Source: Candidatus Adlerbacteria bacterium
Lineage (GTDB): Bacteria > Patescibacteriota > Minisyncoccia > Phycocordibacterales > SBAW01
DNA length: 64,000 bases
Reading direction: 5' to 3'
Assembly: GCA_903884345.1 (NCBI GenBank)
Contig: CAISEE010000046.1
Coordinates: forward strand, 3,830-67,829
Positions 13,485 to 62,683 of the stretch are shown one piece after another (within the stretch, counting starts at the first letter, position 1; every line of letters begins with the position of its first letter). The notes under the pieces are model-generated. The model searched no databases. It was given only the letters and a program-made list of their open reading frames with translations, and was not told the DNA's origin. Both the position numbers and the translations under genes were made by a program.

Positions 13485-13563
13485 CTGAGATTTTTAAGGA
13501 GTTTACGACTATAAAAATCCGAGTGCAGTCGCGTCCTCGCGAGCTGCCGCCAAACATTACGAG

Positions 13564-13592
13564 CACCCGCAAGGGTGCCTTTTGGTGTGCGG
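13564..13592 (+). terminator. Rho-independent terminator downstream of tRNA-Ser
   Basis: gcaccc-gcaa-gggtgc hairpin followed by cttttgg. Confidence 0.6.
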
Positions 13593-13612
13593 GAAGGATT
13601 CGAAAGGCGCCG

Positions 13613-13774
13613 CTATCTCAAAAATCGCAAGGCAAATGCCCCAAACACCAACACAATCCCGACGTTCACCATGAGCCGCTCCCACACCCTATCCCGAAAG
13701 AACAACACATCGACACCGACAATAACGGCAATAAGCGCAACAACACAAACTGCAGTGAGTAGTGGTTTAGTCAT
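13613..13774 (-). CDS. Possible small two-helix membrane protein (53 aa), not in ORF track
   Basis: Manual translation gives MTKPLLTAVCVVALIAVIVGVDVLFFRDRVWERLMVNVGIVLVFGAFALRFLR. No clear SD. Confidence 0.25.
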   Translation of the reverse strand: MTKPLLTAVCVVALIAVIVGVDVLFFRDRVWERLMVNVGIVLVFGAFALRFLR

Positions 13775-29293: not shown

Positions 29294-29365
29294 GGGCGCA
29301 TAGCTCAGCGGTAGAGCAGCCGTCTTATACACGGCCGGTCGTAGGTTCGATCCCTACTGCGCCCA
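29294..29365 (+). tRNA. tRNA with anticodon UAU (predicted tRNA-Ile decoding AUA)
   Basis: Acceptor GGGCGCA/TGCGCCC; D-arm GCTC-AGCGGTA-GAGC; anticodon stem GCCGT/ACGGC with loop CTTATAC; T-arm GTAGG-TTCGATC-CCTAC. Confidence 0.75.
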
Positions 29366-29445
29366 CAAAGATTGCATGCCGCCGACGAATGCGGTATGGT
29401 CAGCCACAGAATAGTCTCCTCAACACACAGAATGGAAAGTTCCCG

Positions 29446-33399: not shown

Positions 33400-33780
33400 G
33401 GGGATGCCAGGCATAGACAATGGGACAGTTCGTCGGATGCGCGAAGTAGAAGACCAGATCTTCTTAAAAAGCTGGAAAACCTACCTGCAGCCAAAACTGC
33501 ATCGCCGTATTTCGCGGCGAACGACTTCCAGTTCGCGCTCGCGCGAGCCTAACGTCGCACTCTCTCCTTCTCGCCTGAGGCTGGAGACCGGGTGTTATAT
33601 ATCAGGACTATAGTCGCGAATCGTCCGCCTTGCGACGCGACCGAACATTAGAGGCTGCAATCGACGCTAGTTTCGTTCGCTTCATATAGCGTCGGTTAAA
33701 GAAACAAAAAAGCGCGACTACACTCCGTAGAAGCTCCGATAGCTCCCCGTTGCACGCGGGTTCAACTCCCGCCATCTCCA
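33400..33780 (+). ncRNA. ssrA: tmRNA (ssrA)
   Basis: 3' end ACGCGGGTTCAACTCCCGCCATCTCCA nearly identical to E. coli tmRNA 3' end. 5' GGGGATG pairs with CATCTCC including a G3:U pair. Internal tag-like frame GCG AAC GAC TTC CAG TTC GCG CTC GCG CGA GCC TAA (ANDFQFALARA*); adjacent to smpB. Confidence 0.8.
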
Positions 33781-33929
33781 CTCGACTCGCCTGCCTTTAT
33801 GGCAGACTCGCTCGTGGCAAGCCACCGATTCGGAATAGCCGACTTGGTGGCTTTTCACGTTGGCGAATCGAGTGTCCCGAGCGAAGTCGAGGGACTTGAT
33901 TTGAATACTAGGCGCGCGAAAATAGAGAC

Positions 33930-48243: not shown

Positions 48244-49014
48244 CTACAAAAACGGCGTGAGAATCTCGCAGCCGTCTTCGGTGACCAAGAGCGATTGCTC
48301 GAAGTGCGCGGCGCGGGAGTGGTCGAGGGTGAGGTACGTCCACTCGTCGTCGGCGACCCCGACGTCGGGCGAGCCTTCGGTCATAATGGGTTCAATCGCC
48401 AGGACCAACCCCGCGACCAATTTCTCGCCGTTGCCTTTGTGGCCCATGTTGGGAATAAAAGGCTTCTCGTGAACGGTTTTGCCCAACGCGTGGCCCCCGA
48501 GTTCTTCGACGATGCCAAGCTTGTACTTCTTGGCCACCAGCTCGACGGCAGCGCCAACGTCTCCCACGTGTGCGCCCGCTTTGATGACTTTGATCGCCTG
48601 GCGCAACGCCTCGCGAGTGCCCTCGAGCAGGTTCTTGGCTGCGTCGTCACACTCGCCGCCTACGATTACCGTGATGGCGGAGTCCGAAAAGAGACCATTG
48701 TAGGAGAGACCCAAATCGAGCGAGACGATGTCGCCGTCCTCAAGCGTGTGCTCTTCGGATGGAATGCCGTGCACCACCTCGTCGTTAACCGAGATGCACA
48801 GCGCCGCCGGGTAGGCGTAGGCCGCGCCGCGCGGTTTGTAGTTGAGGAAGGCGGGCACGCCACCGCGGGCACGGATCTCACGCTCGGCAACCATGTCGAG
48901 CTCGGCGGTCGTGACCCCCGCTTTGACCGCACGCGCGGTTGCGGCAAGCGCCTCGGCGAGGTACTTCCCCGCCAGGCGCAGATTCTTAATGTCTGATTCG
49001 GTTTTGGCAATCAT
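48244..49014 (-). CDS. map: Methionine aminopeptidase, type I
   Basis: Pita-bread fold metal ligands (DIVSLDLG, HGIP, conserved E/H residues). Confidence 0.9.
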   Translation of the reverse strand: MIAKTESDIKNLRLAGKYLAEALAATARAVKAGVTTAELDMVAEREIRARGGVPAFLNYKPRGAAYAYPAALCISVNDEVVHGIPSEEHTLEDGDIVSLDLGLSYNGLFSDSAITVIVGGECDDAAKNLLEGTREALRQAIKVIKAGAHVGDVGAAVELVAKKYKLGIVEELGGHALGKTVHEKPFIPNMGHKGNGEKLVAGLVLAIEPIMTEGSPDVGVADDEWTYLTLDHSRAAHFEQSLLVTEDGCEILTPFL

Positions 49015-49637
49015 GAGAGTTGGAGCGCTTTGAGAATTTCTTGCTGCACGGCCTCGATCGGCTGCTCGCCGTTGATTTCGACGAAGCGGTAGTCGGGCGA
49101 ATTTTTAAACCACTCGTTTACCGCGGCGGCCTCTTGGTGCGACCAGCGCAGACGCTCCTCGATGCCCTCGGTCGTGTCGTCCTCGCGATGGCGCTTGGTA
49201 AGGCGGTCTTTGGCAACCTCGTCGGAGAGGCCGATGTGGAGCACCACCGGGCGCTCGCGCTCGAAGAACTTCATTGCGGAGTCAAAGTCAGGGATCTGGT
49301 CGGTCGTGCGCGGGAAGCCGTCGATGATGATGTGCTCGTTGCCGTGGATGCTGTTGATGAGGCGCGAGGAAAAGAGCTCGGTTGAGATGAAGGTGGGGAT
49401 GAGCTTGCCTGCCGCGATGAGCGGGCGCACTTTTTCCTGCGCGAACCCCTCGCCTGCCGCGAAGGCGCGAAGCGAAGTCCCGGCCGTGAAGTAGACGATC
49501 GAACGCGTGTCGTTGTTGGTAATGTAGTCTTTGAGTAATGAAACCTGCGTGCCTTTGCCGCTGCCTTGAGGGCCTAAGAAAATGATGGTTTGTTGCGTCA
49601 CAATCCACATTGTACAAGAGCGCTCACCTCTACACAA
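49011..49637 (-). CDS. adk: Adenylate kinase
   Basis: IIFLGPQGSGKGTQ P-loop; NMP-binding and LID regions. Alternative start at 49613. Confidence 0.9.
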   Translation of the reverse strand: MCRGERSCTMWIVTQQTIIFLGPQGSGKGTQVSLLKDYITNNDTRSIVYFTAGTSLRAFAAGEGFAQEKVRPLIAAGKLIPTFISTELFSSRLINSIHGNEHIIIDGFPRTTDQIPDFDSAMKFFERERPVVLHIGLSDEVAKDRLTKRHREDDTTEGIEERLRWSHQEAAAVNEWFKNSPDYRFVEINGEQPIEAVQQEILKALQLS

Positions 49638-49665
49638 ATACTAAAACGAGCTACACTTACTGTAT

Positions 49666-50265
49666 ATGAAACTCCACACCATCACCATCTCGGGCATCCC
49701 GGGGAGCGGCAAATCATCGACCGCAGACACCGTTGCGATGCGCCTGGGCTACTCACGATTCTCCTCGGGCGACTTTATGCGCAAGCTCGCGCAAAGCCGC
49801 GGCGTCTCGGTCGACGGGCTGCGTGCCTTGGCCGAACAAGACCACACCATCGATCAACAGATCGACACCGAGGTGCAGCGCGTGGGCCTCAGCGGCAACA
49901 TCGTCATCGACTCGCGCCTGGGCTACCACTTCCTCCCCGACAGCTTCAAAGTATTTCTGTCGCTTGACCCGGAGACCTCGGCACAGCGCGCGGTCGAGCA
50001 TCTCGTGCAAGTCGGCGCACCGGCAGACGACGGCCAACTCCTGCGCGACACGCTCCAAAAAATCACCGACCGCATCGCGAGCGAAAAACAGCGCCACCTC
50101 GCAACCTACGGCGTCGACTTCACCAACGCCGCCAACTACGACCTCATCGTCGACACCAACGCCCATTCGCTCGACGAGACCGTCGAGATGATTTTGGCCG
50201 CCTACAACGTCTGGAGCAACGAGAGACAGCAGCCTCCTACGCCAACCGGTACCCCTCTCGCGTAA
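49666..50265 (+). CDS. cmk: Cytidylate kinase (short/archaeal-type Cmk family)
   Basis: ITISGIPGSGKSSTA P-loop; (d)CMP kinase-like layout. Its 3' end overlaps gmk convergently by 29 nt. Confidence 0.75.
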   Translation: MKLHTITISGIPGSGKSSTADTVAMRLGYSRFSSGDFMRKLAQSRGVSVDGLRALAEQDHTIDQQIDTEVQRVGLSGNIVIDSRLGYHFLPDSFKVFLSLDPETSAQRAVEHLVQVGAPADDGQLLRDTLQKITDRIASEKQRHLATYGVDFTNAANYDLIVDTNAHSLDETVEMILAAYNVWSNERQQPPTPTGTPLA

Positions 50266-50833
50266 GGATCGCAACCACGTTTGCGACCGCCGCCGCCAAT
50301 TGCTGGTCGGCGTTAATAACCGTGAAGTCACACAGGGGGCGGTCTTCGGCGACCTCTTTGAGTGCGTTTTGTTGGCGCTGTGCCAACTCCTCGTCGCTCA
50401 TCTCGGGGTTGCGGGTGCGCAGGCGCGCGAGCAACTCGGTCATATCGCCCGGCATGATGAAAATCGCGGTCGCGCCGTAGTGTTTTTTGTAAAACGAAAT
50501 GCCGACGCCGTCGGTATTGGCCAACACGACGAAGCCTGCATCGAGTTTACTCTGCAGGTCGGGCGCGTACGTGCCGTAGTAGACGTCACGATTTTCTATA
50601 TGAGTCACTTCAAGCATCTCCCCCGCCGTCTGCTTGGCGAGAAAATCTTCTTTGCTGAAGAAGTAGTAGTCGACGCCGTAGGTCTCGCCGGGTCGGGGCG
50701 CACGCGTCGTGGCCGTCACCAGGCGGCGCACACGGTCTGGAAACTGCGCGAGGATGGCGTTGGTGATGGCGCTCTCACCGCTCCCACTGGGACCCGAGAT
50801 GACGGCAACCTGCTTTATGCTGCCGTCCCCCAT
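50237..50833 (-). CDS. gmk: Guanylate kinase
   Basis: AVISGPSGSGESAI P-loop, GMP-binding YGVDYYF, ATRAPRPGE. Confidence 0.85.
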   Translation of the reverse strand: MGDGSIKQVAVISGPSGSGESAITNAILAQFPDRVRRLVTATTRAPRPGETYGVDYYFFSKEDFLAKQTAGEMLEVTHIENRDVYYGTYAPDLQSKLDAGFVVLANTDGVGISFYKKHYGATAIFIMPGDMTELLARLRTRNPEMSDEELAQRQQNALKEVAEDRPLCDFTVINADQQLAAAVANVVAILTREGYRLA

Positions 50834-50835
50834 GA

Positions 50836-52107
50836 TTAGTATTCGCGGAGCGAGATTTGCGCGTCGATGCGACGTGCGAGGTCGAGAATGACCGAGACGA
50901 CGATGAGGAGTGCGGTGCCGCCCAGGGTCAGCGACTGAATGCCGGTCAGGGATTGCATGGCAATCGGGAGGACGGCGATGACGCCAAGGAAGAGCGCGCC
51001 GACGAAGGTGATGCGGGTGATGATGCGGCCGAGGTACTCGGTGGTCGAGTTACCGGGGCGCACGCCCGGGATGAAAGCGCCATTCTTCTGGAGGTTCTCG
51101 GAAATCTGCTTGGGGTCGAAGGTAACCGCGGTGTAGAAGTAGGTGAAGAGGAAGACGAGCGCGAAGTAGATCGAGCCGTAGATACCGAGGTTCTGGAGGC
51201 CATGGAGGACGACGGTTGCGGCAGCAGCCACGAAGTGGATGTGCGAGGTCGTAAAGAAGGTCGCCACCATCTGCGGGATGAGGAGGAGCGAGAGCGCGAA
51301 GATAATCGGGATCACACCTGCCTGATTGAGGCGCAGCGGGAGGAAGGTCGTGGTGCCGCCATAGGTCTTCATGCCGCGCACGCGTTTGGCGTAGGTCACG
51401 GGCACCGGGCGCTCGGCCTCGGTCACAACGACGACGGCCCACACGATGGCGAAGGTGGCAGCGAGGAAGGCCAGGTAGACCGGGATCTGGCTTGCGGTAA
51501 ACGAGAAGGCAGCCTGGCTGATGTCACGCGGGAGGCGCGCCACGATACCGGCGAAGATGAGGACCGAGACGCCGTTGCCCAGGCCAAACTCCGAGACGAG
51601 TTCACCGAGCCACATAAGCAGCAGCGAGCCTGCGACGACGACCAAGAGGTTGACGCCAAACTGGAAGGCGTTGAGCGTCTGCATGATGCCCTCGCGCTGC
51701 AAGATAAGGAGGAAGCTGATGCCCTGGACGACGGCGATCGGGAGCGTCAAAAAGCGCGTGTACTGGGCGAACTTCTGGCGGCCTGCCTCACCCTCTTCTT
51801 GATAGAGCTGCTTGAGGCTCGGGATCATCATGGTCAAAAGCTGCAGGATGATCGACGCGGTGATGTAGGGGCCCACACCCAAAAGGACGATCGAGAGGTT
51901 CGAGAGTCCGCCGCCCGAGAAGAGGTTGAGGAGGCCGAAGAATTGGTTGTTGCTGAAGAATTGCTGGAGTGCCTGCGCGTTGATGCCCGGAATCGGGATC
52001 GACGCGAGCGCGCGAAAGATCGCGAGCGAGCCCAAGACGAAGAGCAACCGATTGCGGAGCGTCGAGTCTTTGAGCAGTAATGAAATTTTAGCTGCGAACG
52101 AGTTCAT
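50836..52107 (-). CDS. secY: Preprotein translocase subunit SecY
   Basis: 423 aa, 10 TMs, conserved SecY plug/hinge motifs. Confidence 0.9.
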   Translation of the reverse strand: MNSFAAKISLLLKDSTLRNRLLFVLGSLAIFRALASIPIPGINAQALQQFFSNNQFFGLLNLFSGGGLSNLSIVLLGVGPYITASIILQLLTMMIPSLKQLYQEEGEAGRQKFAQYTRFLTLPIAVVQGISFLLILQREGIMQTLNAFQFGVNLLVVVAGSLLLMWLGELVSEFGLGNGVSVLIFAGIVARLPRDISQAAFSFTASQIPVYLAFLAATFAIVWAVVVVTEAERPVPVTYAKRVRGMKTYGGTTTFLPLRLNQAGVIPIIFALSLLLIPQMVATFFTTSHIHFVAAAATVVLHGLQNLGIYGSIYFALVFLFTYFYTAVTFDPKQISENLQKNGAFIPGVRPGNSTTEYLGRIITRITFVGALFLGVIAVLPIAMQSLTGIQSLTLGGTALLIVVSVILDLARRIDAQISLREY

Positions 52108-52113
52108 GAGGGT

Positions 52114-52557
52114 TTACTCGGCAATCGAACCGCCCGCCTTCTCGATCTTCTCTTTAGCCGAGCCTGAAACGACGCAGCCGGCGATGATGAACTTCTTGGT
52201 GACCTCACCGTTGCCGAGAATCTTCACGGCCGGAGTGATGGTCTTGCGTGCGCGAACGAGGCCGCGCTCGACCAAGACTGCCGGCGAGATGGTCTCCCCC
52301 GCCTTGAAGGCGACCTCAAGCGAGCTCACATTCACGACCGCAGGCTTCTCCTGGATGCTGTAGAGGCCCTGGATGCCGCGTCCGCGCATCTTCGGAAGTT
52401 TCTTGAGCTTCTCGCGGACGTCTGGGCGAATCGAGTGACCGGCGCGCGCCTTCTGACCCTTGGTACCACGACCCGAGGTCTTGCCGCGAATACCGCCACG
52501 ACCGACGCGCTTGGCCGATTTCGTTGCTGTCTTTGGTTTGAGTTCGTGGAGTTGCAT
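52114..52557 (-). CDS. rplO: 50S ribosomal protein L15
   Basis: MQLHELKPKTATKSAKRVGRGGIRGKTSGRGTKGQKAR. Confidence 0.9.
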   Translation of the reverse strand: MQLHELKPKTATKSAKRVGRGGIRGKTSGRGTKGQKARAGHSIRPDVREKLKKLPKMRGRGIQGLYSIQEKPAVVNVSSLEVAFKAGETISPAVLVERGLVRARKTITPAVKILGNGEVTKKFIIAGCVVSGSAKEKIEKAGGSIAE

Positions 52558-52562
52558 AAAAG

Positions 52563-53174
52563 TTAGGCTTTGAGCTGCTTAAGCGCTTCGATTGCGGCGC
52601 GCGCGTTGTTAAGACCGTTCTTGCTGCCCGAGTGGATCTTGGCCACCACATTGGTGACGCCACCCAATTCGAGGACCGGGCGAACCGACGAGCCGGCGAC
52701 GAGACCGCGGCCGCGAGCCGGCATGAGCGAGACGCGTGCGGCGCAGTACTTGGCGTCGACCTCGTGTGCGATCGAGGTGTCTTTGGTGAGGTTGATGGTG
52801 ATCATGTGCTTCTTGGCATCGCGGACCGCCTTGTCGATTGCAAGCGTCGTGTCCCCTGCTTTGCCGAGACCCACACCGACTTTGCCCTTCTTGTTGCCGA
52901 TGATGATTGCAACCGAGAATGAGAAGCGGCGACCGCCGGCGACCACACGCGCCACGCGGCGGATGTTGATCATCTTTTGGTCAAACTCGCTTTTCGCGCG
53001 CGGAGGGCGCGGACCGCGATTGCCGCCAGGGCCACCTGGGCGACCGCCGGGGCGACCAGCACCGCCGCGAGCACCGCGTCCGCGCGGCGAAAACGCCGGC
53101 TTTGCCGAAGGAGCAGCGGCAGTGGTTGCCTCTGGTGCCTGTCCTGCGGTGATGTTGTTTTCGATGTCAGCCAT
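52563..53174 (-). CDS. rpsE: 30S ribosomal protein S5 (with Arg/Gly/Pro-rich N-terminal extension)
   Basis: MINIRRVARVVAGGRRFSFSVAIIIGNKKGKVGVGLGKA core; ~60-aa RG-rich extension. Confidence 0.9.
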   Translation of the reverse strand: MADIENNITAGQAPEATTAAAPSAKPAFSPRGRGARGGAGRPGGRPGGPGGNRGPRPPRAKSEFDQKMINIRRVARVVAGGRRFSFSVAIIIGNKKGKVGVGLGKAGDTTLAIDKAVRDAKKHMITINLTKDTSIAHEVDAKYCAARVSLMPARGRGLVAGSSVRPVLELGGVTNVVAKIHSGSKNGLNNARAAIEALKQLKA

Positions 53175-53184
53175 GAATAGATAG

Positions 53185-53538
53185 TTAGAATTTCAAACCG
53201 CCCTCGCGAGCCGCATCAGCCAATACAGCGACCCGTCCGGTGTAGCGGAACCCGCCGCGGTCAAAGACCACCGTCGTGATGCCGAGCGCCGCCGCCTTCT
53301 TGGCGAGTTCGACGCCGAGCGCCTTTGCGGCATCGGTCTTCTTCATGCCCTTGGCAGCCTCTTTGGTCGAGCCTGCGACCAGGGTGACGCGCTTTGCGTC
53401 ATCGATGATCTGCGCGTGCATGTAGCGGTTCGATTTGTAGACCGACAGGCGCGGCTGCGTGGCCGAGCCGATGACCTGGGTGCGGATACGTGCGTGACGT
53501 CGTTCGCGGCCGATTCGTTTGTTGTTGGTAGTAGTCAT
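53185..53538 (-). CDS. rplR: 50S ribosomal protein L18
   Basis: RHARIRTQVIGSATQPRLSVYKSNRYMHAQIID. Confidence 0.9.
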   Translation of the reverse strand: MTTTNNKRIGRERRHARIRTQVIGSATQPRLSVYKSNRYMHAQIIDDAKRVTLVAGSTKEAAKGMKKTDAAKALGVELAKKAAALGITTVVFDRGGFRYTGRVAVLADAAREGGLKF

Positions 53539-53546
53539 AACGGTGT

Positions 53547-54080
53547 TTATGAGGTCTTCTTACCCTGCTTGCGGCGGATAACTTCCCCATCGTAGCGGAT
53601 GCCCTTGCCTTTGTACGGCTCCGGCTTCTTCTGCGCGCGGACGTTTGCGGCAAACTGGCCGACCGCCTCTTTATCAAAACCGGTGATGGTGAGTGCGTTC
53701 TTCTCGGCGACGACAGTGAGCCCTTCGGGGATCGCCATCTTGACCGGGTGCGAGAAGCCGAGCGAGAGGTTGAGCACCTTGCCCTGAACATCCCACTTGA
53801 AGCCGACGCCTTCGACGAGGAGCTTCTTGCTGTAACCCTTGGTCACGCCTTCGAGCATGTTGCGTACGTGCGAGGCGTAGGTGCCGACGGTTGCGCGTGA
53901 CTCGATGGTCGACCCCTTGGCCGAGACCTGGACACCCTCTGGAGTGACCTCGACAGAGACGAGGCGGTTGGCTGCGCGGGTGAGCGTTCCCTTCGGACCC
54001 TTGACCGTGATAAGGCCGCCCGAAACGGTGAGTTCGGTTTGTGCGGGGAGGCTGATTGGGCGTTTAGCAAGACGTGACAT
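53547..54080 (-). CDS. rplF: 50S ribosomal protein L6
   Basis: MSRLAKRPISLPAQTELTVSGGLITVKGPKGTL. Confidence 0.9.
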   Translation of the reverse strand: MSRLAKRPISLPAQTELTVSGGLITVKGPKGTLTRAANRLVSVEVTPEGVQVSAKGSTIESRATVGTYASHVRNMLEGVTKGYSKKLLVEGVGFKWDVQGKVLNLSLGFSHPVKMAIPEGLTVVAEKNALTITGFDKEAVGQFAANVRAQKKPEPYKGKGIRYDGEVIRRKQGKKTS

Positions 54081-54086
54081 AATGAT

Positions 54087-54476
54087 TTACCAAATTTCGA
54101 ACAGAGTCTCGCCGCCGACGCGCTGCTCGCGAGCTTCTTTACCAGTAAGGATGCCTGCCGGGGTCGAGAGGAGCAGAAGGCCGTGACCACGCTTGACCGG
54201 CTGGATGTCGCGCACACCGGCGTAGAGGCGGCGTGAGGGCTTCGAGAGGCGCTTGACGCCCGAGATGACCGGCTTGCCGTCTTTGTAGGCAAGAGCGACG
54301 ATAAGCGAGGCGCCGGCCTTGGACTTCTTGTCGATCGAGGCGACATAGCCCTCGCGGACCAAGACCTCGGCGATGGCACGCTTCATCTGCGAGTACGGCA
54401 AGGTCAAAGTCTCCTTACCAGCGTTGCTGGCGTTCTTGAGACGAATAATGAAATCTGCTGTTGGGTCGGTTACCAT
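54087..54476 (-). CDS. rpsH: 30S ribosomal protein S8
   Basis: [45 protein letters not shown]. Confidence 0.9.
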
Positions 54477-54655
54477 GATGATTTTCGGATGCCCGGAATA
54501 AGACCTTCGTTAGCGGCTTCGCGGAAGCAGGTGCGGCACATACCGAAGTCGCGCATAAACGAGCGAGCGCGGCCGCAGCGGAAACAGCGGTTAACCGCGC
54601 GCGAAGAGAACTTCGGCGTCTTATTCGATCTTGCTACTGTAGATTTTTTTGCCAT
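54470..54655 (-). CDS. rpsZ: 30S ribosomal protein S14 type Z (zinc-binding)
   Basis: 61 aa; [23 protein letters not shown] (C4 zinc ribbon). Confidence 0.9.
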
Positions 54656-54690
54656 TTAGAAAAGAAAAGCCCGAAAAAAGGGCTTCGCAG
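54656..54690 (-). promoter_or_regulatory. Leader hairpin plus U-tract directly abutting rpsZ AUG (terminator-like attenuator/operator)
   Basis: On the minus strand: GAAGCCC-ttttttc-GGGCTT-TTCTTTTCTAA-ATG; no SD sequence. Confidence 0.55.
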
Positions 54691-54719
54691 ATAGTACGCG
54701 AAAGCGGTTAGAAAGTCAA
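54691..54719 (-). promoter_or_regulatory. Near-consensus sigma-70 promoter for rpsZ-secY operon
   Basis: On the minus strand: TTGACT-17 nt-TACTAT, ~7 nt upstream of the hairpin leader. Confidence 0.55.
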
Positions 54720-54771
54720 CAAACTCGCCTGCGCTTCATATAGTTTCCATACCCTGCCCTGTGGAAACCCT

Positions 54772-55515
54772 ATGGTTGCGAGTGGTGGTACAATGGAAAT
54801 ATATATGATTGAAATAGACTCACTGCACAAACAGATTGACGGGCGAACCATCGTGTCCAACCTCTCACTTTCGATACAAAAGGGCTCTGTCTTCGGCTTT
54901 TTGGGCCCCAACGGAGCGGGCAAGACGACCACGATGAAGATTCTGGTGGGACTCAACCACCCCTCCTCGGGGCGGGTCACCATCGACGGGCACGCCCCGA
55001 GCGAGACCCTGACCCGCGAGAAACTGGGCTTTATGCCCGAGGCACCGTACTTCTACGAGCACCTCACGGGGTTGGAGTTCCTGCGCTTTTGCGGCGAGCT
55101 CTTTGCCCGGCCCCGCGGCGAGGCCGCCTACGAGGCACTGCTGCGCAAAGTCGGCATCTTCGAGGCCAAAGACCAGCGCATCACCACCTACTCCAAGGGC
55201 ATGAAGCAGCGCCTGGGGTTTGCGCAGGCCCTGGTGAATGACCCCGAGTACGTCTTCCTCGACGAGCCCTTGGATGGCCTTGACCCCATCGGCCGCCGGG
55301 CGCTTAAATCGATGATCCGGGAACTCAAGCACGACGGGCGCACGGTCTTCTTTAACTCTCACATCCTCTTTGACACCGAGGAGCTGTGCGACGAGATCGG
55401 CATCCTCAACCGCGGCTCCCTCCTGTTTGCCGGCCCTTTGGGCGAGTTTACCCGCGGCCTGTCGCTGGAAGAGCAGTTCGTCGCCACTATTGAGCAACTC
55501 GAAGTAACTGCATGA
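54772..55515 (+). CDS. ABC transporter ATP-binding protein
   Basis: Walker A GPNGAGKTTT, Q-loop, signature-like YSKGMKQRL, Walker B VFLDEPLDGLD. Alternative start at 54793. Confidence 0.85.
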   Translation: MVASGGTMEIYMIEIDSLHKQIDGRTIVSNLSLSIQKGSVFGFLGPNGAGKTTTMKILVGLNHPSSGRVTIDGHAPSETLTREKLGFMPEAPYFYEHLTGLEFLRFCGELFARPRGEAAYEALLRKVGIFEAKDQRITTYSKGMKQRLGFAQALVNDPEYVFLDEPLDGLDPIGRRALKSMIRELKHDGRTVFFNSHILFDTEELCDEIGILNRGSLLFAGPLGEFTRGLSLEEQFVATIEQLEVTA

Positions 55516-56288
55516 AACACTCATTTATCCGCGACACCCTGGTCGTCGCCAAAAATACGTTCAAAGAAAGCGTGCGCGACAAGGTCTTTTACGCCCTCTT
55601 CGCCTTCGCCTTCATCACCATCACCTTTACCCTCTTCTTGGGTTCGATTTCGCTGAGCGAAGACGTCCACGTGATTCGAAGCCTCGGGATGGCCGGCATC
55701 TACCTCTTTAGCATCCTCATCACGGTCTTTTTGGGCACCGCGCTCATGTACAAAGAGATCGAGCGCCGCACGCTCTACTTCATCCTCTCAAAACCAGTCA
55801 CCCACGCGCAGGTCGTGGTCGGCAAGTTCCTCGGGCTCTTTGCGAGTGTCGCACTCTCGACCCTGGGTATGACGGCAGTCTACCTCGCGACCGTGCTCTA
55901 CGCGGGCGGCGGGTTTGATCGATTGGCACTTCTGGCCGTCTTCTTCGAGATTCTCGAGCTCGGCCTCCTCATCGCGCTCTCAATCTTCTTCTCGACCTTC
56001 GCCAAGCCCCTTGCGGGCGCGGTCTACGCCATCCTCGTCATCTACATCGGCCACTCGCTGGGGATGCTCGCTGCGGTCTCCGAAAAGAGCGGCGTTCTCG
56101 CGCACCGCTTCATCCAAGTGCTCTACTACCTTTTGCCCAACCTCGAGAAATTTAACATACGCGATTTGGTCCTCTACAACCAGGCACCCTCGCTCTCTGC
56201 CACCCTGGCGGTCGTCCTCTACGCCGCGGTCTACGCGACGATACTCCTGTGCGGCGGGACACTACTTCTTAAGCGACGCGAATTTTAG
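55512..56288 (+). CDS. ABC-2 family transporter permease
   Basis: 258 aa, six TM helices; overlaps the ATPase stop (ATGA). Confidence 0.75.
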   Translation: MKHSFIRDTLVVAKNTFKESVRDKVFYALFAFAFITITFTLFLGSISLSEDVHVIRSLGMAGIYLFSILITVFLGTALMYKEIERRTLYFILSKPVTHAQVVVGKFLGLFASVALSTLGMTAVYLATVLYAGGGFDRLALLAVFFEILELGLLIALSIFFSTFAKPLAGAVYAILVIYIGHSLGMLAAVSEKSGVLAHRFIQVLYYLLPNLEKFNIRDLVLYNQAPSLSATLAVVLYAAVYATILLCGGTLLLKRREF

Positions 56289-56290
56289 CC

Positions 56291-57121
56291 ATGCCCGAGG
56301 TCGTACGACATAGCAGTACTGCGCGCTGGGCACTCGCGCTGACCCTCCTCATCGCGCTCGTGGGAAGCCAGGTTTTCTTTGACCGCAACGCGCCCCAGGG
56401 CCACGACATTCCACTGAGCACCCTCTCGCCCGACGTCGTGCGCGCCGCAGACCTTGGCCTGCACGGGGCGGCGGCATCTCTGCTGTGGCTTCGTGTCGTG
56501 CAAAACGTCGGTATGTACGTCCTGCAGTCGCCCAAGACCATGTCGAGCGACATGCAGGCGGTCGTCGAGCTGGATCCCAAGTTTAGCTACCCCTACAGCT
56601 TCGCCGTGCTCATGATCCCCGGCATCGATCGCTCGCAGACGCCCCAAGCACTGGCAATCGGCGAGCGCGGCATGGCCGAGAACCTCGGCGACTGGCGCAT
56701 CCCCTACTACCTGGGCTTTACCTACCACTTCGTGCTGCACGACCCCAAAAACGCCCTCGTGTATATGACACAGACGGCGCACACGCCGGGCGTCCCCGAG
56801 GGCATCAAGGTCTCGGCACTCAACTATGGCTCACAGACGAAGGTCGAGGAACAGACGCGCGAGATCTGGACCGCGATTCGCGACAATGCCACCGACGACG
56901 TCACCCGCCAGCAGGCGCAAGATAACCTCGACCACCTCGCCATCATCGACGGCCTAAAAGCCGCGGTGGCAGCCTACAAGGCTCGATACGGCACCTTCCC
57001 CACCCGCCTCGACGCACTCGTCACCTCGGGGATCATCCCGGCGATTCCGCAAGATCCGTTCGGCATCACGTTTGGTATACTGCACGACAACGGCGAGCTC
57101 ACGTTTTCACTCGGCAAATAA
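56291..57121 (+). CDS. Hypothetical membrane-anchored protein; C-terminus with pseudopilin-like YGxFPxxLxxLV...P(Q)DP(F/W)G motif
   Basis: N-terminal TM; C-terminal AAYKARYGTFPTRLDALVTSGIIPAIPQDPFG. Confidence 0.5.
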   Translation: MPEVVRHSSTARWALALTLLIALVGSQVFFDRNAPQGHDIPLSTLSPDVVRAADLGLHGAAASLLWLRVVQNVGMYVLQSPKTMSSDMQAVVELDPKFSYPYSFAVLMIPGIDRSQTPQALAIGERGMAENLGDWRIPYYLGFTYHFVLHDPKNALVYMTQTAHTPGVPEGIKVSALNYGSQTKVEEQTREIWTAIRDNATDDVTRQQAQDNLDHLAIIDGLKAAVAAYKARYGTFPTRLDALVTSGIIPAIPQDPFGITFGILHDNGELTFSLGK

Positions 57122-57130
57122 CATTCCTGC

Positions 57131-58621
57131 ATGCACCACCACGCCGACCTCTACGCGATTCTTCCCCTCTCGGCGCTCGCCCTTCTGACCACCCTCTCGG
57201 CGCTCTCCAACCCCTACAGCCGCATGAGTCGCGTGCGCAATCCGTTTGAGACCAAGCTTGCGCACGGCCGCATCACACTCACGAAACGGTTCGACCTGTC
57301 GGTGCGCCGATCGCTCTTTTGGCGTCTGTTCGCATACGGCAAATGCGGGTGGCACATCGTCTCGAACGTGCGCGCGGGCTCTCGCGCCAAAAGCAAAACC
57401 CGCGAGGGCATCATTCGCGACATCCACCGCGTGCGTTTCAATCCCAAGCGGCCGTACGTCATCTCGGGCGACCACTTCAACGTCTTCTACCCGCGCAACC
57501 TCGGCGTCTTTTACTACGCGATGATCGACCCGCGCACGGCACTGAGCCCCGCCGATTTCGAGCATCGCCAGCGCCTGTACCTGCAGTCGGCGGCCTACGC
57601 CATCGCCGCCTTCGCCGAACATGGCGATTGCACGACGACCATCGTCCCCGTGGGCGAGCGTGCCGTCTGCTGCATCAACTTCTACACCTACCCCTCCGAC
57701 GCCCTCTACGGCATCCTCTTTGCGCTTGCCGTCCTGCGCGACGATCGTGTCTTTTGCGAGCGATTCCCTTTCACCCCCGCTGCCGCCCCTGCGCCCGTGA
57801 CCAAAGATGCCGCCGAGGCGCTGCTTAGCGAGCGCCGCGCGACACTCGAACTGCTCCTGCAAAAGTACGTCGTACATGTTTATGATTTTGAAACCGGCCT
57901 CATTAAAACCAACGTGCGCATCTCGTCGGCCAAAGACATCACCATCCGCGAGGGTGCGTTTTATGACAACGTCATCGTATGGAAGACGCTGTCGCTGGCC
58001 GACGAACTTGGTCTCACTCGACCTGACATTAACCTGCCTCAGCTGAAGGCCCGCATTCTTACGGCCTTCTGGCGCGAGCAAGACGGCTTCTTTCTCGAGG
58101 ATCAATCGCGTGCCGCGGCGAGCGAGGGCTACTACTCGGCCGACTGGCTGACCGCTTTCTTCACCGGATTCCTCGATGCCAACGTCCCCGCCGAAGTAAC
58201 GTACCTGCGCCGCGCGGTCGGCTACACGATGCGACAAAACCTCGACCTCCCCTTCCCGCTGCGCTACCAGGGCGAGGATCGCGCGAGCCGACAGTACCCG
58301 CTCGTGCGCCTCGTCGTCCCCTCCTACGGCGGCACCAGCATCTGGAGCTTTTGGGGCGCCGAGTTCATCAAGCTTTTGGTCGTCCTCTACCGCCACACGG
58401 GAAACGAGACATACCTTGCGCGCGCCGGCCAGCACGTCGAAACGTATGAAAAGAATATGGAACAGTACCGCGGCTACCCCGAGGTCTACAACACCGACGG
58501 CGGCATGCTCAACACACCGCTCTACAAATCCGTCCGCCAAACCGGCTGGGTCGTCGGCTTCGAACAAGCCGCCGCGATGTACCGTGCGGCTACAGAAATC
58601 ACAGAAGCGGCAAAAAATTAA
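57131..58621 (+). CDS. Hypothetical 496-aa protein, Trp/Tyr/aromatic-rich, possibly glycoside-hydrolase-like (alpha/alpha barrel)
   Basis: Signal-like N-terminus; motifs GDHFNVFYPRNLGVFYY, GGTSIWSFWGAEFIKLLVVLYRHTGNETYL, GYPEVYNTDGGML. Family assignment uncertain. Confidence 0.5.
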   Translation: MHHHADLYAILPLSALALLTTLSALSNPYSRMSRVRNPFETKLAHGRITLTKRFDLSVRRSLFWRLFAYGKCGWHIVSNVRAGSRAKSKTREGIIRDIHRVRFNPKRPYVISGDHFNVFYPRNLGVFYYAMIDPRTALSPADFEHRQRLYLQSAAYAIAAFAEHGDCTTTIVPVGERAVCCINFYTYPSDALYGILFALAVLRDDRVFCERFPFTPAAAPAPVTKDAAEALLSERRATLELLLQKYVVHVYDFETGLIKTNVRISSAKDITIREGAFYDNVIVWKTLSLADELGLTRPDINLPQLKARILTAFWREQDGFFLEDQSRAAASEGYYSADWLTAFFTGFLDANVPAEVTYLRRAVGYTMRQNLDLPFPLRYQGEDRASRQYPLVRLVVPSYGGTSIWSFWGAEFIKLLVVLYRHTGNETYLARAGQHVETYEKNMEQYRGYPEVYNTDGGMLNTPLYKSVRQTGWVVGFEQAAAMYRAATEITEAAKN

Positions 58622-58709
58622 CGCTTCATCTTTTCATGTACAAGCACCTCCTGGTTGAGTAAAATGATGCGCAGACGGACTGCGATACCACAACAAACAA
58701 AGGGAAGGA

Positions 58710-59102
58710 TTGCATTGCATGGTCGAGGCGTCACTCATCGCACAGACGTTTTGCACGAACCTCACGTTCTTAGCTGCGCTTATCGAGGCCTTTCACGACT
58801 ATAACGAAAAAGTACCCAACGGAGGCGAAATTTCCAGCACGACATTGACGCTGTACGAGGAGTCGGCCGATACCGAATACCAGATTCGCATTGACTTGAG
58901 TCCGCACCTCAGCCGGGACGGACCCGATCGACTCCTCGACGCCCACGGGCTTACCTTGCGCGAGGATGTGCAACACGTTCTCACTGCGCTCCTCACCCAT
59001 CATCGTGGGCACAAGGATTCACCGAGCATCTTAGTTCTCATCATACTTCTGTCATCAAACGCCGGTCACGGCACCGCGTCTGCTACGATTCCCATCCGCT
59101 AA
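58710..59102 (+). CDS. Hypothetical protein
   Basis: 130-aa ORF; lower-GC region; no motif. Confidence 0.4.
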   Translation: MHCMVEASLIAQTFCTNLTFLAALIEAFHDYNEKVPNGGEISSTTLTLYEESADTEYQIRIDLSPHLSRDGPDRLLDAHGLTLREDVQHVLTALLTHHRGHKDSPSILVLIILLSSNAGHGTASATIPIR

Positions 59103-59172
59103 GTACCAACGATACACGGCCTCACTCGCAAGAGCGGGGCCGTAACTAGTTCGCCCAACGAGCGTTGTATAT

Positions 59173-59489
59173 GTGTATATGACCAAACACCCCATCCTAA
59201 ACGCATTGCTGGCGGCCTTGTATATCGGCCTCATCGCGTCGTTAATGTTCTTCGGGCAGCGATACGTTGACCCGGTCGATAACGTGCTCATGCCGATGAC
59301 CATGCTGTCCTTGTTGACACTCTCGGTCGCGTTTATGGCCTGCGCTTTTTCCTCCAGCCCGTACTCCTGTATTTGGACGGACACAAGGTCGCGGCCGTCA
59401 AACTGATCCTGCACACCATCGCCGCCTTCGCGATCATCACAGCGCTCTTTCTCGCCGCCCTCTTCATCTCGCCGCTACTCTACAAATAA
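59173..59489 (+). pseudogene. Small membrane protein, frameshifted in a T5 run
   Basis: Frame 1 ...LSVAFMACAF then -1 frame FLQPVLLYLDGHKVAAVKLILHTIAAFAIITALFLAALFISPLLYK*. Frames join if T5 at 59346..59350 were T6. Confidence 0.6.
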
Positions 59490-59494
59490 AGAGT

Positions 59495-59517
59495 TTGCGG
59501 AGGTCAGTCCTCCGCAA
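59495..59517 (+). repeat. Repeated terminator-hairpin motif (copy 2)
   Basis: TTGCGGAGG-tcagt-CCTCCGCAA followed by ATTTGTTT; 20-nt identity with 42935..42954. Confidence 0.7.
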
Positions 59518-59584
59518 ATTTGTTTGACAAGACCATGCGTTTAGGTACTATGCAAAATAGCTAAACTAGTTCATGGAGAACGTA

Positions 59585-60031
59585 ATGCTTACGCGACGGC
59601 AGGTATTCATAGGTGCTACTGCTGCTGCAGCAATGGCTCCTGTATTGGCTAACATGATGCTCGATACCAGCGCCGCTTCGGAGCGCGATGCTGCTCTGCG
59701 GTTGATCGCGGCACGGGTGAAGACAGCGCTCAGCACCCCCGTTTCGACGAACGCAACGCCGGACTTCGTACGGATGTGGGAGCAACTCACCGCCGAATGG
59801 AGAACCGCACCAGACCTTGTAGCGATGGTGGAACAGAAGACAAACAGGATTTTCGCCAACGGCTACTCGATCTTGGTGTACGCGCACTTCGGCAGCCTGC
59901 CCTCGCAAGGGATGGTAAGGGATTACTTCTCCGACTACGCTCTCGACCACTTCCCGTTCCACTACCATGAATTACGCGAGCCGGAGATGCTTGCGGCATT
60001 CACAGCGCTTGTGCCCCAACACCTGCGCTGA
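59585..60031 (+). CDS. Hypothetical secreted protein with twin-arginine (Tat) signal peptide
   Basis: MLTRRQVFIGATAAAAMAPVLA (S/T-R-R-x-F-L/I-G plus h-region plus AxA); GGAGAA SD. Confidence 0.6.
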   Translation: MLTRRQVFIGATAAAAMAPVLANMMLDTSAASERDAALRLIAARVKTALSTPVSTNATPDFVRMWEQLTAEWRTAPDLVAMVEQKTNRIFANGYSILVYAHFGSLPSQGMVRDYFSDYALDHFPFHYHELREPEMLAAFTALVPQHLR

Positions 60032-60481: not shown

Positions 60482-60519
60482 GCTTGCCCTCGAAGACGCG
60501 TTCTCTGCAGTACCAAACT

Positions 60520-60558
60520 GAAAACCCGCCGCATCGTTTCGAATGCGGCGGGTTTTTC
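60520..60558. terminator. Bidirectional rho-independent terminator (end of rplE operon segment and of inserted cassette)
   Basis: aaaa-CCCGCCGCA-tcgtttcgaa-TGCGGCGGG-tttttcgg. Confidence 0.8.
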
Positions 60559-60568
60559 GGTAAAAAAA

Positions 60569-61108
60569 TTATTTCTTGAACGGGAGACCGAGGTGTTCGA
60601 GGTAGGCCAGGGCAGACTCGCGGGTGGTGGCGGTGGTGACGATGGTGATCGCCATACCGAAAACGTCCTTGAGCTCCTCGTCGGCGGTTTCAGGGAAGAC
60701 CGAGTGCTCTTTGATGCCGAGGGTGTAGTTGCCCATCTCGTCGACGGCGGTCTTGGAGATACCCTTGAAGTCTTTAGTACGCGGGAGGGCGACGTGGATC
60801 AGGCGGTTGAGGAAGTCCTCTTTGCGCTTGCCGCGCAGCGTCACCTGGTAGCCAATGACGTCGCCGATACGGGTCTTGAAGGTCGCGACGGCCTTCTTGG
60901 CGCCGCGGGAAATCGGCTTCTGGCCGGTGATCTTGGCGAGGCGGTCGATGACGAGGGCAATCTTTGCCTTGTCTTTGGTCATTTTGCCCACACCAACCGA
61001 CACGACAACCTTCTCGATCTTCGGGGTCTGCATGACGTTCGTCCACGCAAAGTCACCTTTGAGGGTCGAGTACGCGGTCTTCTGCTGTTCGTGTATAAGT
61101 TGGGTCAT
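60569..61108 (-). CDS. rplE: 50S ribosomal protein L5
   Basis: 179 aa; KIEKVVVSVGVGKMTKDKAKIALVIDRLAKITGQKP. Confidence 0.9.
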   Translation of the reverse strand: MTQLIHEQQKTAYSTLKGDFAWTNVMQTPKIEKVVVSVGVGKMTKDKAKIALVIDRLAKITGQKPISRGAKKAVATFKTRIGDVIGYQVTLRGKRKEDFLNRLIHVALPRTKDFKGISKTAVDEMGNYTLGIKEHSVFPETADEELKDVFGMAITIVTTATTRESALAYLEHLGLPFKK

Positions 61109-61141
61109 AGTGGTGTGTTACTTGTGGTGAGCGTAGTCGAA

Positions 61142-61420
61142 CTACTTCTTCTTGGCGACGCGCGTCTTCTTTGCCTTTGCCTCGGCCTTCACCTCGACGG
61201 TGCTCTTGACCTTGCTTGCGTGGATCGGATGGTGCTTGTCGATAATCTGCCCCTGCTGGCCTTCGCGGCGCGGCTTCTGGTGCTTTTTGTGAAAGCCCAC
61301 ACCCTCGACGACGACTTTGTTCTCTTTGGGGAACACCTCGATGACTTTGCCGGACTTGCCCTTCTCGGATCCCGAGAGGATGATCACGGTGTCACCTTTC
61401 TTTACGTGGAGAGTATTCAT
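61142..61420 (-). CDS. rplX: 50S ribosomal protein L24
   Basis: [29 protein letters not shown] (KOW motif). Confidence 0.9.
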
Positions 61421-61425
61421 AGGCG

Positions 61426-61806
61426 TTATACGACTTCCGGCGCGCGGGAGATGATAGTCTGATAACCAAGCTCCGAAAGCTCGCGCGGGATCGGGCCGAA
61501 GATGCGGCCAGCCTTGGGCTCCTGCGGGCTCCTGCCGGTGCCTTCGATAATCACGACGGCGTTCTCGTCGAAGCGCAGGTACGATCCGTCTTTTCGGCGA
61601 AACGGCTTCTTCTGGCGGACGACGACGGCCTTGAGGATGTCCTTCTTCTTGACGCCCTTGCGCGGCTCGGCGGTCTGGACCGACACGATCACGACCTCGC
61701 CGATCTCGGCGTAGCGCTTGTGGGACGAACCCGGCACCTTGAAGACGCGGGCGATCTTGGCGCCGGTGTTATCTGCAACTACAACGAGTGAGCGGTCTTG
61801 TATCAT
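61426..61806 (-). CDS. rplN: 50S ribosomal protein L14
   Basis: [24 protein letters not shown]. Confidence 0.9.
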
Positions 61807-61807
61807 G

Positions 61808-62053
61808 TTAGTTAAATACGATTTCGAATGACTTCGTCTTCGACAACGGACGGCAGGAACGGATCACCACCTGCTCCCCTTCCTTGGCCTTGTTGCCCGG
61901 ATTGTGCGCGTGGTACTTCTTGGTGATCTTCATGTACTTCTTGTACTTGGGGTGCTTGACGTAGCGAAGCACCGCGACCACGGCCGTGTCCTGCATCTTG
62001 TCCGAGGTGACGACACCGCGAAGGGTTTTTCTGTTGGTGGTAATTGGTTCCAT
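61808..62053 (-). CDS. rpsQ: 30S ribosomal protein S17
   Basis: KTLRGVVTSDKMQDTAVVAVLRYVKHPKYKKY. Confidence 0.9.
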   Translation of the reverse strand: MEPITTNRKTLRGVVTSDKMQDTAVVAVLRYVKHPKYKKYMKITKKYHAHNPGNKAKEGEQVVIRSCRPLSKTKSFEIVFN

Positions 62054-62056
62054 ATG

Positions 62057-62251
62057 CTATTTCGAGTTACGTACGGTGAGCTCGGTCAGGCTGCGCGCAA
62101 TGTCCTTGCGGAGGGTGCGGGCGAGCTTTACGTTACGATTTTTACTCCCTGCGACGGAAAAACGCAAGGTGCGGAGCTCTTCGCGCTTACCGGCGACGAG
62201 ATTGTTGATCTCTTCGACGGAGTGGTTGATAAGGGTAAGTTTCTTTGACAT
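62057..62251 (-). CDS. rpmC: 50S ribosomal protein L29
   Basis: 64 aa; EELRTLRFSVAGSKNRNVKLARTLRKDIAR. Confidence 0.85.
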   Translation of the reverse strand: MSKKLTLINHSVEEINNLVAGKREELRTLRFSVAGSKNRNVKLARTLRKDIARSLTELTVRNSK

Positions 62252-62263
62252 ACAAATGTGGGG

Positions 62264-62683
62264 TTAGGCGCGGGCAACGACCTTAGCTTTCAGCGGGAGC
62301 TTCTTTGACGCACCGACCAAAGCCTTGGTGGCGATGACCTCAGAGACGCCGTCGACCTCGAAGAGGACACGTCCCGGCCAGATCTCGACCTCGTAGCCGA
62401 CCGGATCACCCTTGCCCTTGCCGAGCTTCACTTCAGGCGGCTTCTGGGTAAAGGGCTTGTCGGGGAAGATGCGCACCCAGACCTTGCCGGTCTTGCCCAA
62501 GGAGCGAGCGATCACCTTGCGGGCGCTCTCGATCTGGTTGGAGCGGACGCGAGCGTGAGTCACCGCCTTGAGGCCGTGGCTGCCGAAGGCGACCGTGATG
62601 CCACGCGAGGCGACCATGTCGCGCTTGGTGTTGCGACGCATCGTGTGCGATTTGCGGAATTTAACTTTCTTAGGGAAAAGCAT
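62264..62683 (-). CDS. rplP: 50S ribosomal protein L16
   Basis: MLFPKKVKFRKSHTMRRNTKRD... Confidence 0.9.
   Translation of the reverse strand: MLFPKKVKFRKSHTMRRNTKRDMVASRGITVAFGSHGLKAVTHARVRSNQIESARKVIARSLGKTGKVWVRIFPDKPFTQKPPEVKLGKGKGDPVGYEVEIWPGRVLFEVDGVSEVIATKALVGASKKLPLKAKVVARA

Follow-up and report, generated by a model that had tools for sequence, protein, structure and literature searches.

How is a ribosomal-protein operon expressed when its first gene, rpsZ, lies kilobases from the other half of its cluster and is preceded by a small hairpin where a Shine–Dalgarno (SD) sequence would normally be? The question is raised by the window, the whole stretch of 64,000 nucleotides of a Candidatus Adlerbacteria contig that was analysed here. 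In it, the initial annotation had described a promoter, TTGACT-17-TACTAT, on the minus strand, followed by a hairpin and a U-rich stretch before the rpsZ AUG, and had read the hairpin as either an intrinsic attenuator or an operator for ribosomal-protein autoregulation, with a pointer to the feedback of S8 on the classical spc operon. The following features bear on the transcription of the gene.

54470..54655, minus strand: rpsZ, encoding zinc-type S14 of 61 amino acids (Pfam Ribosomal_S14, E = 2.3e-21)
50836..54476, minus strand: rpsH–rplF–rplR–rpsE–rplO–secY, tightly packed after rpsZ (open reading frames; Pfam labels of an identical public contig)
54772..60031, plus strand: insertion of 5.9 kb and seven genes between rplE and rpsZ (open reading frames, Pfam)
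60515..60552, minus strand: intrinsic terminator right after rplE, stem CCCGCCGCAU/AUGCGGCGGG, then UUUUCAGUUU (−27.6 kcal/mol, z = −5.0)
61108..60569, minus strand: rplE (Pfam)
62641..60569, minus strand: rplP, rpmC, rpsQ, rplN, rplX and rplE, the other half of the ribosomal cluster (Pfam)

The start codon of rpsZ is the ATG at 54655..54653, which gives an encoded N terminus that agrees with those of relatives, and the start of rpsH overlaps the rpsZ stop. The seven genes of the insertion encode an ABC ATPase, an ABC-2 permease and five proteins without a Pfam match; in relatives, rplE and rpsZ are also separated by insertions at this junction, but by shorter ones. Because a strong terminator follows rplE and seven opposite-strand genes occupy the intervening 5.9 kb, the rpsZ–secY unit needs its own promoter. 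Read-through from rplE is not credible as the source of rpsZ transcripts in view of the same two features, and the description of the operon as 're-promoted' in the initial annotation stands. For the ABC ATPase reading frame, the start is probably an internal ATG near 54805 (MIEIDSLHK...) rather than the one at 54772. At the far end of the unit, secY is followed by a guanylate kinase gene (50833..50237, minus strand) that has a convergent overlap of ~29 nt with a cytidylate-kinase-like gene (49666..50265, plus strand). These two genes lie between secY and adk/map (49011–50833), and the usual secY–adk–map order is broken.

The region directly upstream of rpsZ was resolved into the following elements.

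54714..54719, minus strand: −35 hexamer TTGACT of the rpsZ promoter (sequence and pattern scan)
54691..54696, minus strand: −10 hexamer TACTAT, after a 17-nt spacer (sequence and pattern scan)
54684, minus strand: predicted transcription start, an A that is the first base of hairpin P1 (from the −10-to-ATG gap of leaderless-type genes)
54668..54684, minus strand: hairpin P1, arms AGCCC (54684..54680) and GGGCU (54672..54668) around the loop UUUUUUC (sequence, pattern scan and folding)
54656..54667, minus strand: pyrimidine/A-rich tract UUUCUUUUCUAA, reaching the AUG and predicted to be single-stranded (folding)

The minus strand reads as had been claimed, and both pattern scans agree. The promoter spacer, AACCGCTTTCGCG, is nearly the same as that of one relative (L013), and six nucleotides, CTGCGA, separate the −10 hexamer from the AGCCC arm. 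The −35 hexamer overlaps the −35-like box of a divergent promoter-like site on the plus strand (TCAACA-17-TATAGT, 54716..54744), which stands back to back with it and would serve the ABC ATPase gene. At the DNA level, the P1 stem can be extended to GAAGCCC/GGGCUUU (54686..54666), and in this form it folds at −9.8 kcal/mol (z = −1.25 versus shuffles). When folded from the predicted +1, P1 is a 5-bp stem of −7.1 kcal/mol (z = −0.7), and the rest of the 29-nt leader, together with the AUG, is predicted to be unpaired. Folding, which had been proposed as a check, returned the hairpin, but with a weak stem: −7 to −10 kcal/mol, as against −27.6 kcal/mol for the rplE terminator. A terminator-like scan with a loose definition passes P1 and its T-tract (7 pairs, 4 of them G-C; tail TCTTTTCTAA). 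A motif of the form AGCCC-N3-9-GGGCT is expected by chance 0.42 times per window, and an Rfam 15 search of the window yielded no family for the leader, only a chance-level match (14.7 bits, E = 8). On their own, the promoter and hairpin of the window are without statistical distinction; it is conservation, described below, that lifts them above chance. The short leader is the same in four independent assemblies of the species (L005–L008) and is therefore not an assembly artefact.

Transcription start sites and translation signals were assessed across the window. A TAnnnT box stands 3–10 nt before the ATG of 18 of the 66 open reading frames, compared with 2.9 ± 1.8 at random positions; the modal gap between box and ATG is 6 nt, and the box often takes the form TGnTAnnnT (for example, at 46955, 45542, 26972, 15968, 15158 and 27011). 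This enrichment and spacing point to many mRNAs that begin 7 nt after the −10 box, at the start codon itself, and suggest that leaderless mRNAs are widespread in this genome. By the same spacing, transcription of rpsZ would start at A54684, which would make P1 a 5′-terminal stem–loop.

SD cores are no more frequent than chance, being found upstream of 5 of the 66 open reading frames as against 8.1 ± 2.6 at random positions, and a properly spaced SD was found at none of the ~40 starts inspected, including those of every gene in the rpsZ–secY operon. A subgroup of Parcubacteria has been reported to have lost the anti-SD motif (PMC9297842). Lack of an SD characterises the lineage rather than the rpsZ leader in particular. 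The initial observation that rpsZ has no SD where one would normally be was accurate, but it does not single out this gene, and the initial verdict of an unusual architecture at the head of a major ribosomal operon is valid only if E. coli-type expectations are the yardstick.

Other RNA genes were found in the window. A tmRNA gene lies at 33400–33783 on the plus strand (Rfam RF00023, 88.7 bits), and ARAGORN places a tRNA-Ile with the anticodon UAU at 29294–29366, also on the plus strand. Such a tRNA is uncommon in bacteria, in which AUA is usually read by a lysidine-modified CAU tRNA.

To place the rpsZ leader in an evolutionary context, ten relatives were picked by their S8 protein alone (64–75% identity), through a protein database and exact-protein look-ups; a GTDB genome scan with the S8 protein gave matches only in distant phyla (39–44% identity), which were not usable for comparison. 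The source names of the S8 homologues are Candidatus Paceibacterota, Adlerbacteria, Kaiserbacteria and Pacebacteria, which places the window in a CPR (Patescibacteria) genome, and the nearest S8 outside the window species is ~74–75% identical. All ten relatives have the same promoter spacing, the AGCCC/GGGCU hairpin and the pyrimidine tract upstream of rpsZ. The initial annotation had staked its reading on conservation of the hairpin in close relatives, and conserved it is. The relatives' −35 hexamer is TTGACT, TTGCAT or TTGCTT, at the same position as in the window, and their −10 hexamer, TAGTAT or TATATT, ends 6–7 nt before P1. In P1 itself, the arms are constant and the loops variable, and the hairpin is followed by CCUUUUUUCU. 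Each of the ten then has a long form of the leader, with a further 50–160 nt between the tract and the AUG.

The breadth of this arrangement was gauged by a metagenome scan with GGGCTCCTTTTTTCTNNWAGGT, which returned at least 80 loci and at least ~60 distinct leaders; among the matches listed, nearly all directly precede an S14 gene starting MAKKST. The relatives' leader consists, in order, of the promoter, P1 at +1, CCUUUUUUCU, a helix P2a, an internal loop that resembles the S8 site of 16S rRNA, a hairpin P3, AGAAUCAUAAC, a hairpin P4 and the AUG. Of these features, the promoter spacing and P1 with its tract are present in the window, and P2a, the internal loop and P3 are absent. The segment GGGCUCCUUUUUUCU is invariant in the ten S8-picked relatives, and 12 of its 15 positions are kept in the window. 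This is more conservation than a generic protective hairpin or pairing in P2a would need, and it suggests a sequence-specific role. A long-range helix closing the whole leader, in which CCUUUUUU would pair with AAAAGG or AAAAA(U)GG near the AUG, was considered and rejected: the mean longest complementary run is 4.52 nt, compared with 4.14 nt in shuffles, so the helix is not a general feature of the leaders, and it is present in one subclass only.

Several features of these loci were recorded in passing. The relatives' leaders contain three single-stranded stretches without an assigned role, situated between P1 and P2 or beyond P2: CCUUUU (within GGGCUCCUUUUUUCU), AGAAUC(A/G)UAAC, and (A)CCA(U), a motif that recurs 0–10 nt before AUGG. 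In the predicted fold of one relative, L011, CCAUU is paired to AAUGG, which buries the start codon. The 61-codon rpsZ is missing from the gene tables of most public records of the clade (L005, L009, L011, L013–L023 and L104) despite an intact reading frame, leaving a gap of ~300–400 nt before rpsH; only L105 and L106 list it. The omission could be a failure of gene calling, possibly owing to the short length and the lack of an SD, or an artefact of how the tables were built.

The long form of the leader was then examined for structure. It is ~80–190 nt in length and contains covarying pairs (loci L009 (2680–2821), L011, L013, L014, L018, L020, L022, L104–L106 and L024–L103). P2a forms between UUCUGN, at the 3′ end of the tract, and N′CAGAA, and inside this helix lies (U/A)A-GGU-xy ... 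y′x′-A-N-A-CC, which encloses the variable-length hairpin P3. In an alignment of 43 sequences, 91% of cells at the proposed pairs are standard, as against 33–49% when the partners are slid by 1–3 columns, and the observed covariation score was reached by none of 500 shuffles. Five pairs have changed on both sides; for example, columns 37–61 hold GC 21 times and CG 20 times, and columns 31–68 hold UA 19 times, AU 7 times and CG 4 times. RNAalifold recovers the same core unaided.

The core, (U/A)AGGU(C/G) ... (G/C)A(A/U/G)ACC, was compared with the site that S8 binds in helix 21 of 16S rRNA. In E. coli, this site consists of U593 U594 A595 A596 G597 U598 C599 and G639 A640 U641 A642 C643 U644 G645. 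According to its published rules, A642 is invariant, position 641 varies, G597 pairs with C643 and a base triple forms on the 596–644 pair, for which E. coli has A-U and Thermus C-G (PMC4176348). The relatives' core follows these rules, including the unpaired A (595) and U598–A640, with G-C as the equivalent of 596–644. The A, the second A and the CC of its 3′ strand are invariant in 59 of 59 leaders among the matches listed, at positions that the search pattern did not fix. No 16S gene was found among the relatives' loci from which the clade's own helix 21 could be read, and the comparison rests on E. coli 16S rRNA and the literature.

These observations suggest that the relatives carry a mimic of the S8 site, and that their leader is a candidate S8 autoregulatory element; binding of S8 is postulated from the mimicry. 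The leader also looks undescribed, since an Rfam 15 search of leaders from six of the relatives' loci gave no match at E ≤ 1 and a survey of ribosomal-protein leaders mentions neither an S8 or S14 leader nor the CPR (PMC7247131). The known S8-interacting mRNA structure overlaps the start of rplE and is confined to Gammaproteobacteria (PMC3616713). Because the relatives' leader is found in the CPR, its S8 mimic is probably an independent invention.

What, then, became of this module in the window? In alignment A2, the window aligns with the relatives from the −35 hexamer through P1 and the tract; a single clean gap then extends to 'AA AUG'. The first 10 nt of the tract, UUUCUUUUCU, match the relatives' CCUUUUUUCU without gaps at 7 of 10 positions, and all 10 are pyrimidines; the CAGAA strand, its partner in P2a, is missing. 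This homology and the single gap identify the window element as a deletion derivative of the clade leader. The deleted part runs from P2 to just before the AUG (~50–160 nt in relatives) and, as a result, P1 and the tract abut the start codon.

A covariance model, R1, was built from the P1–P2–core portion of the relatives' leader. Held-out family members with long P3 inserts score 57–79 bits. The rpsZ leader of the window scores 6.2 bits (E ~6), and no P2a helix, GGU.../...ANACC loop or P3 was detected in it. Over the whole window, the best R1 score is 12.7 bits at 13559..13624, a plain hairpin and U run after tRNA-Ser, and a regular expression for the S8-like core found no site near the window's rpsZ operon. 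Relocation of the S8-like site to another place in the window was rejected, as neither search gave anything credible. Loss of RNA-contact residues from the S8 protein of the window was likewise rejected: its S-T-P motif and conserved Tyr are typical of the clade. Since the S8-like module has been deleted, the hairpin that remains in the window is not an S8 operator of this kind. The autoregulation proposed in the initial annotation finds a putative counterpart in the homologous leaders of the relatives, which mimic helix 21, but not in the window itself. Separately, the hairpin after tRNA-Ser is a likely terminator (GCACCC-GCAA-GGGUGC then CUUUUGG, 13563–13586, plus strand, ~80 nt after the tRNA gene), and suggests that a short stem can suffice for termination in this genome.

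We consider the following reading of the window rather probable, although well short of certain: an ordinary promoter, a 5′-terminal stem–loop and an unstructured start region are the stump of the clade leader, from which the S8-like operator has been deleted. A sigma-70-type promoter would transcribe rpsZ–rpsH–rplF–rplR–rpsE–rplO–secY as a separate unit, and the mRNA would retain, as its first ~30 nt, the 5′ remnant of a leader shared by a large clade of Paceibacteria (CPR). With transcription starting at A54684, P1 would most plausibly shield the mRNA from decay that depends on the 5′ end, a role proposed by analogy only. The unpaired U/A-rich stretch around the AUG may serve SD-independent loading of the 30S subunit, as on the genome's other leadered genes. 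The element would then be constitutive rather than a feedback operator, and S8 feedback, if it operates in the relatives, would have been lost or moved in the window species.

Other functions for P1 were weighed against this reading. Together with the U tract, the hairpin might terminate some transcripts ~25–30 nt after their start and so set or modulate expression of the operon. Several observations are consistent with this proposal: the loose terminator-like scan accepts P1; in two relatives (L062 and L035), the stem extends to GGAGCCC/GGGCUCC with U6 directly after it; conservation of the U tract reaches past the bases engaged in P2a; and the short 6-bp hairpin with CUUUU after tRNA-Ser implies that short terminators may work in this genome. 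However, the stem of P1 in the RNA has only 5 bp and −7.1 kcal/mol, compared with −27.6 kcal/mol for the rplE terminator, most relatives have two Cs between the stem and the U run, and in relatives the promoter is already preceded by another, stronger terminator. An unregulated terminator would bring no obvious benefit to a highly expressed ribosomal operon. Regulation is equally difficult to envisage, because P1 begins at the predicted +1, which leaves no upstream RNA for an anti-terminator, competing structure or factor site; in the relatives, P1 precedes the putative protein-binding module, which consequently cannot control it. As a regulated attenuator, the proposal of the initial annotation therefore does not fit, and termination at P1 in any form is unlikely, although we give it some weight. 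A further proposal is that P1 and the tract (GGGCUCCUUUUUUCU), invariant across a broad clade of Paceibacteria and kept in the window after loss of the S8-like module, act by themselves and through their sequence to control expression in SD-less CPR bacteria, either as a site for a factor or as a promoter-proximal signal for pausing or termination that tunes ribosomal-protein output. We assign this proposal a small probability; were it correct, the window species would hold a natural 'minimal' version in which the element works without the S8 mimic.

It is improbable that P1 and the tract are simply neutral leftovers that have not yet decayed, with the promoter alone being of importance. The fold of P1 is indeed no better than that of shuffled sequences (z = −0.7 to −1.25), 3 of 10 tract positions have already changed, and no relative has the same loop. 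On the other hand, both 5-nt arms are intact, the stem has been lengthened by two complementary bases and the boundary of the deletion falls exactly after the tract. Moreover, the nearest relatives share only ~74% identity in S8, which implies that neutral sequence has had enough time to decay in this lineage. Finally, the remaining P1 and tract could themselves be an operator, bound by S8, S14, another ribosomal protein or an RNA-binding factor, such that feedback persists without the helix 21 mimic. Their unusual invariance across the clade and their survival of the deletion that removed the remaining leader would fit such a role, and a protein bound to P1, which ends 11 nt before the AUG, could block 30S loading. 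Yet P1 has no internal loop and no S8-site signature, it has no match in Rfam, and the S8 of the window is clade-typical at the RNA-contact residues named above. We also know of no ribosomal protein that recognises a plain 5-bp GC hairpin, and we regard an operator of this kind as very improbable.

On the preferred reading, that of a promoter followed by the stump of a longer leader, the window copy is a truncated and probably non-regulatory member of a family that appears to be uncatalogued, although leaders of ribosomal-protein operons are a known kind of element, and the odd-looking architecture of the window becomes ordinary. The wider interest lies with the relatives: a large group of uncultured Paceibacteria carries a structured, covarying rpsZ leader that copies the S8 site. 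This would amount to S8 feedback invented independently outside Gammaproteobacteria, in organisms without SD-based initiation. The window species is a natural deletion of the S8-like module and a ready-made negative control, and it raises the question of how ribosomal proteins are kept in balance without the operator.

Several known systems offer comparisons. Ribosomal-protein leaders that act by attenuation, such as the S10 leader with L4 and NusA in E. coli and the L20/infC leader in B. subtilis, place the terminator downstream of the protein-binding or alternative structure. Like them, the window has a GC hairpin that leads into a U-rich tract ahead of ribosomal-protein genes. By contrast with theirs, the hairpin in the window is transcribed first, is short and weak, and can have no competing structure.

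The S8 operator of the E. coli spc operon lies where rplE begins (Cerretti et al. 1988, Merianos et al. 2004, cited in PMC3616713, PMC4176348). Like it, the relatives' leader reproduces the S8 site of 16S helix 21 in a helix whose internal loop is asymmetric, and this helix lies shortly before a cistron of the S14–S8–L6... block. Plausibly, the two would also work alike, with excess S8 binding the mRNA and blocking initiation, and the downstream genes responding through translational coupling. Unlike the E. coli operator, the relatives' mimic stands before rpsZ and not over the rplE start, has G-C rather than A-U at the equivalent of 596–644 and involves no SD. The window, which does not have the mimic, is not a member of this class.

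With regard to translation, the window resembles the Parcubacteria that lack an anti-SD and initiate independently of an SD or on leaderless mRNAs (PMC9297842), in that no SD precedes rpsZ or almost any other gene. The −10 boxes located 6 nt before many ATGs in the window extend the likeness to leaderless initiation, from which rpsZ departs with its leader of ~29 nt.

For the hairpin itself, the closest parallels are the leaders of ompA in E. coli and of ermC and aprE in B. subtilis; 5′-terminal stem–loops of this kind typically protect mRNA from 5′-end-dependent decay. As in those leaders, a small hairpin at the predicted 5′ end is followed in the window by single-stranded RNA and the start codon. 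The differences are that the 5′ end is a predicted one here and that the sequences of the P1 arms are far more conserved than a generic protective hairpin would call for.
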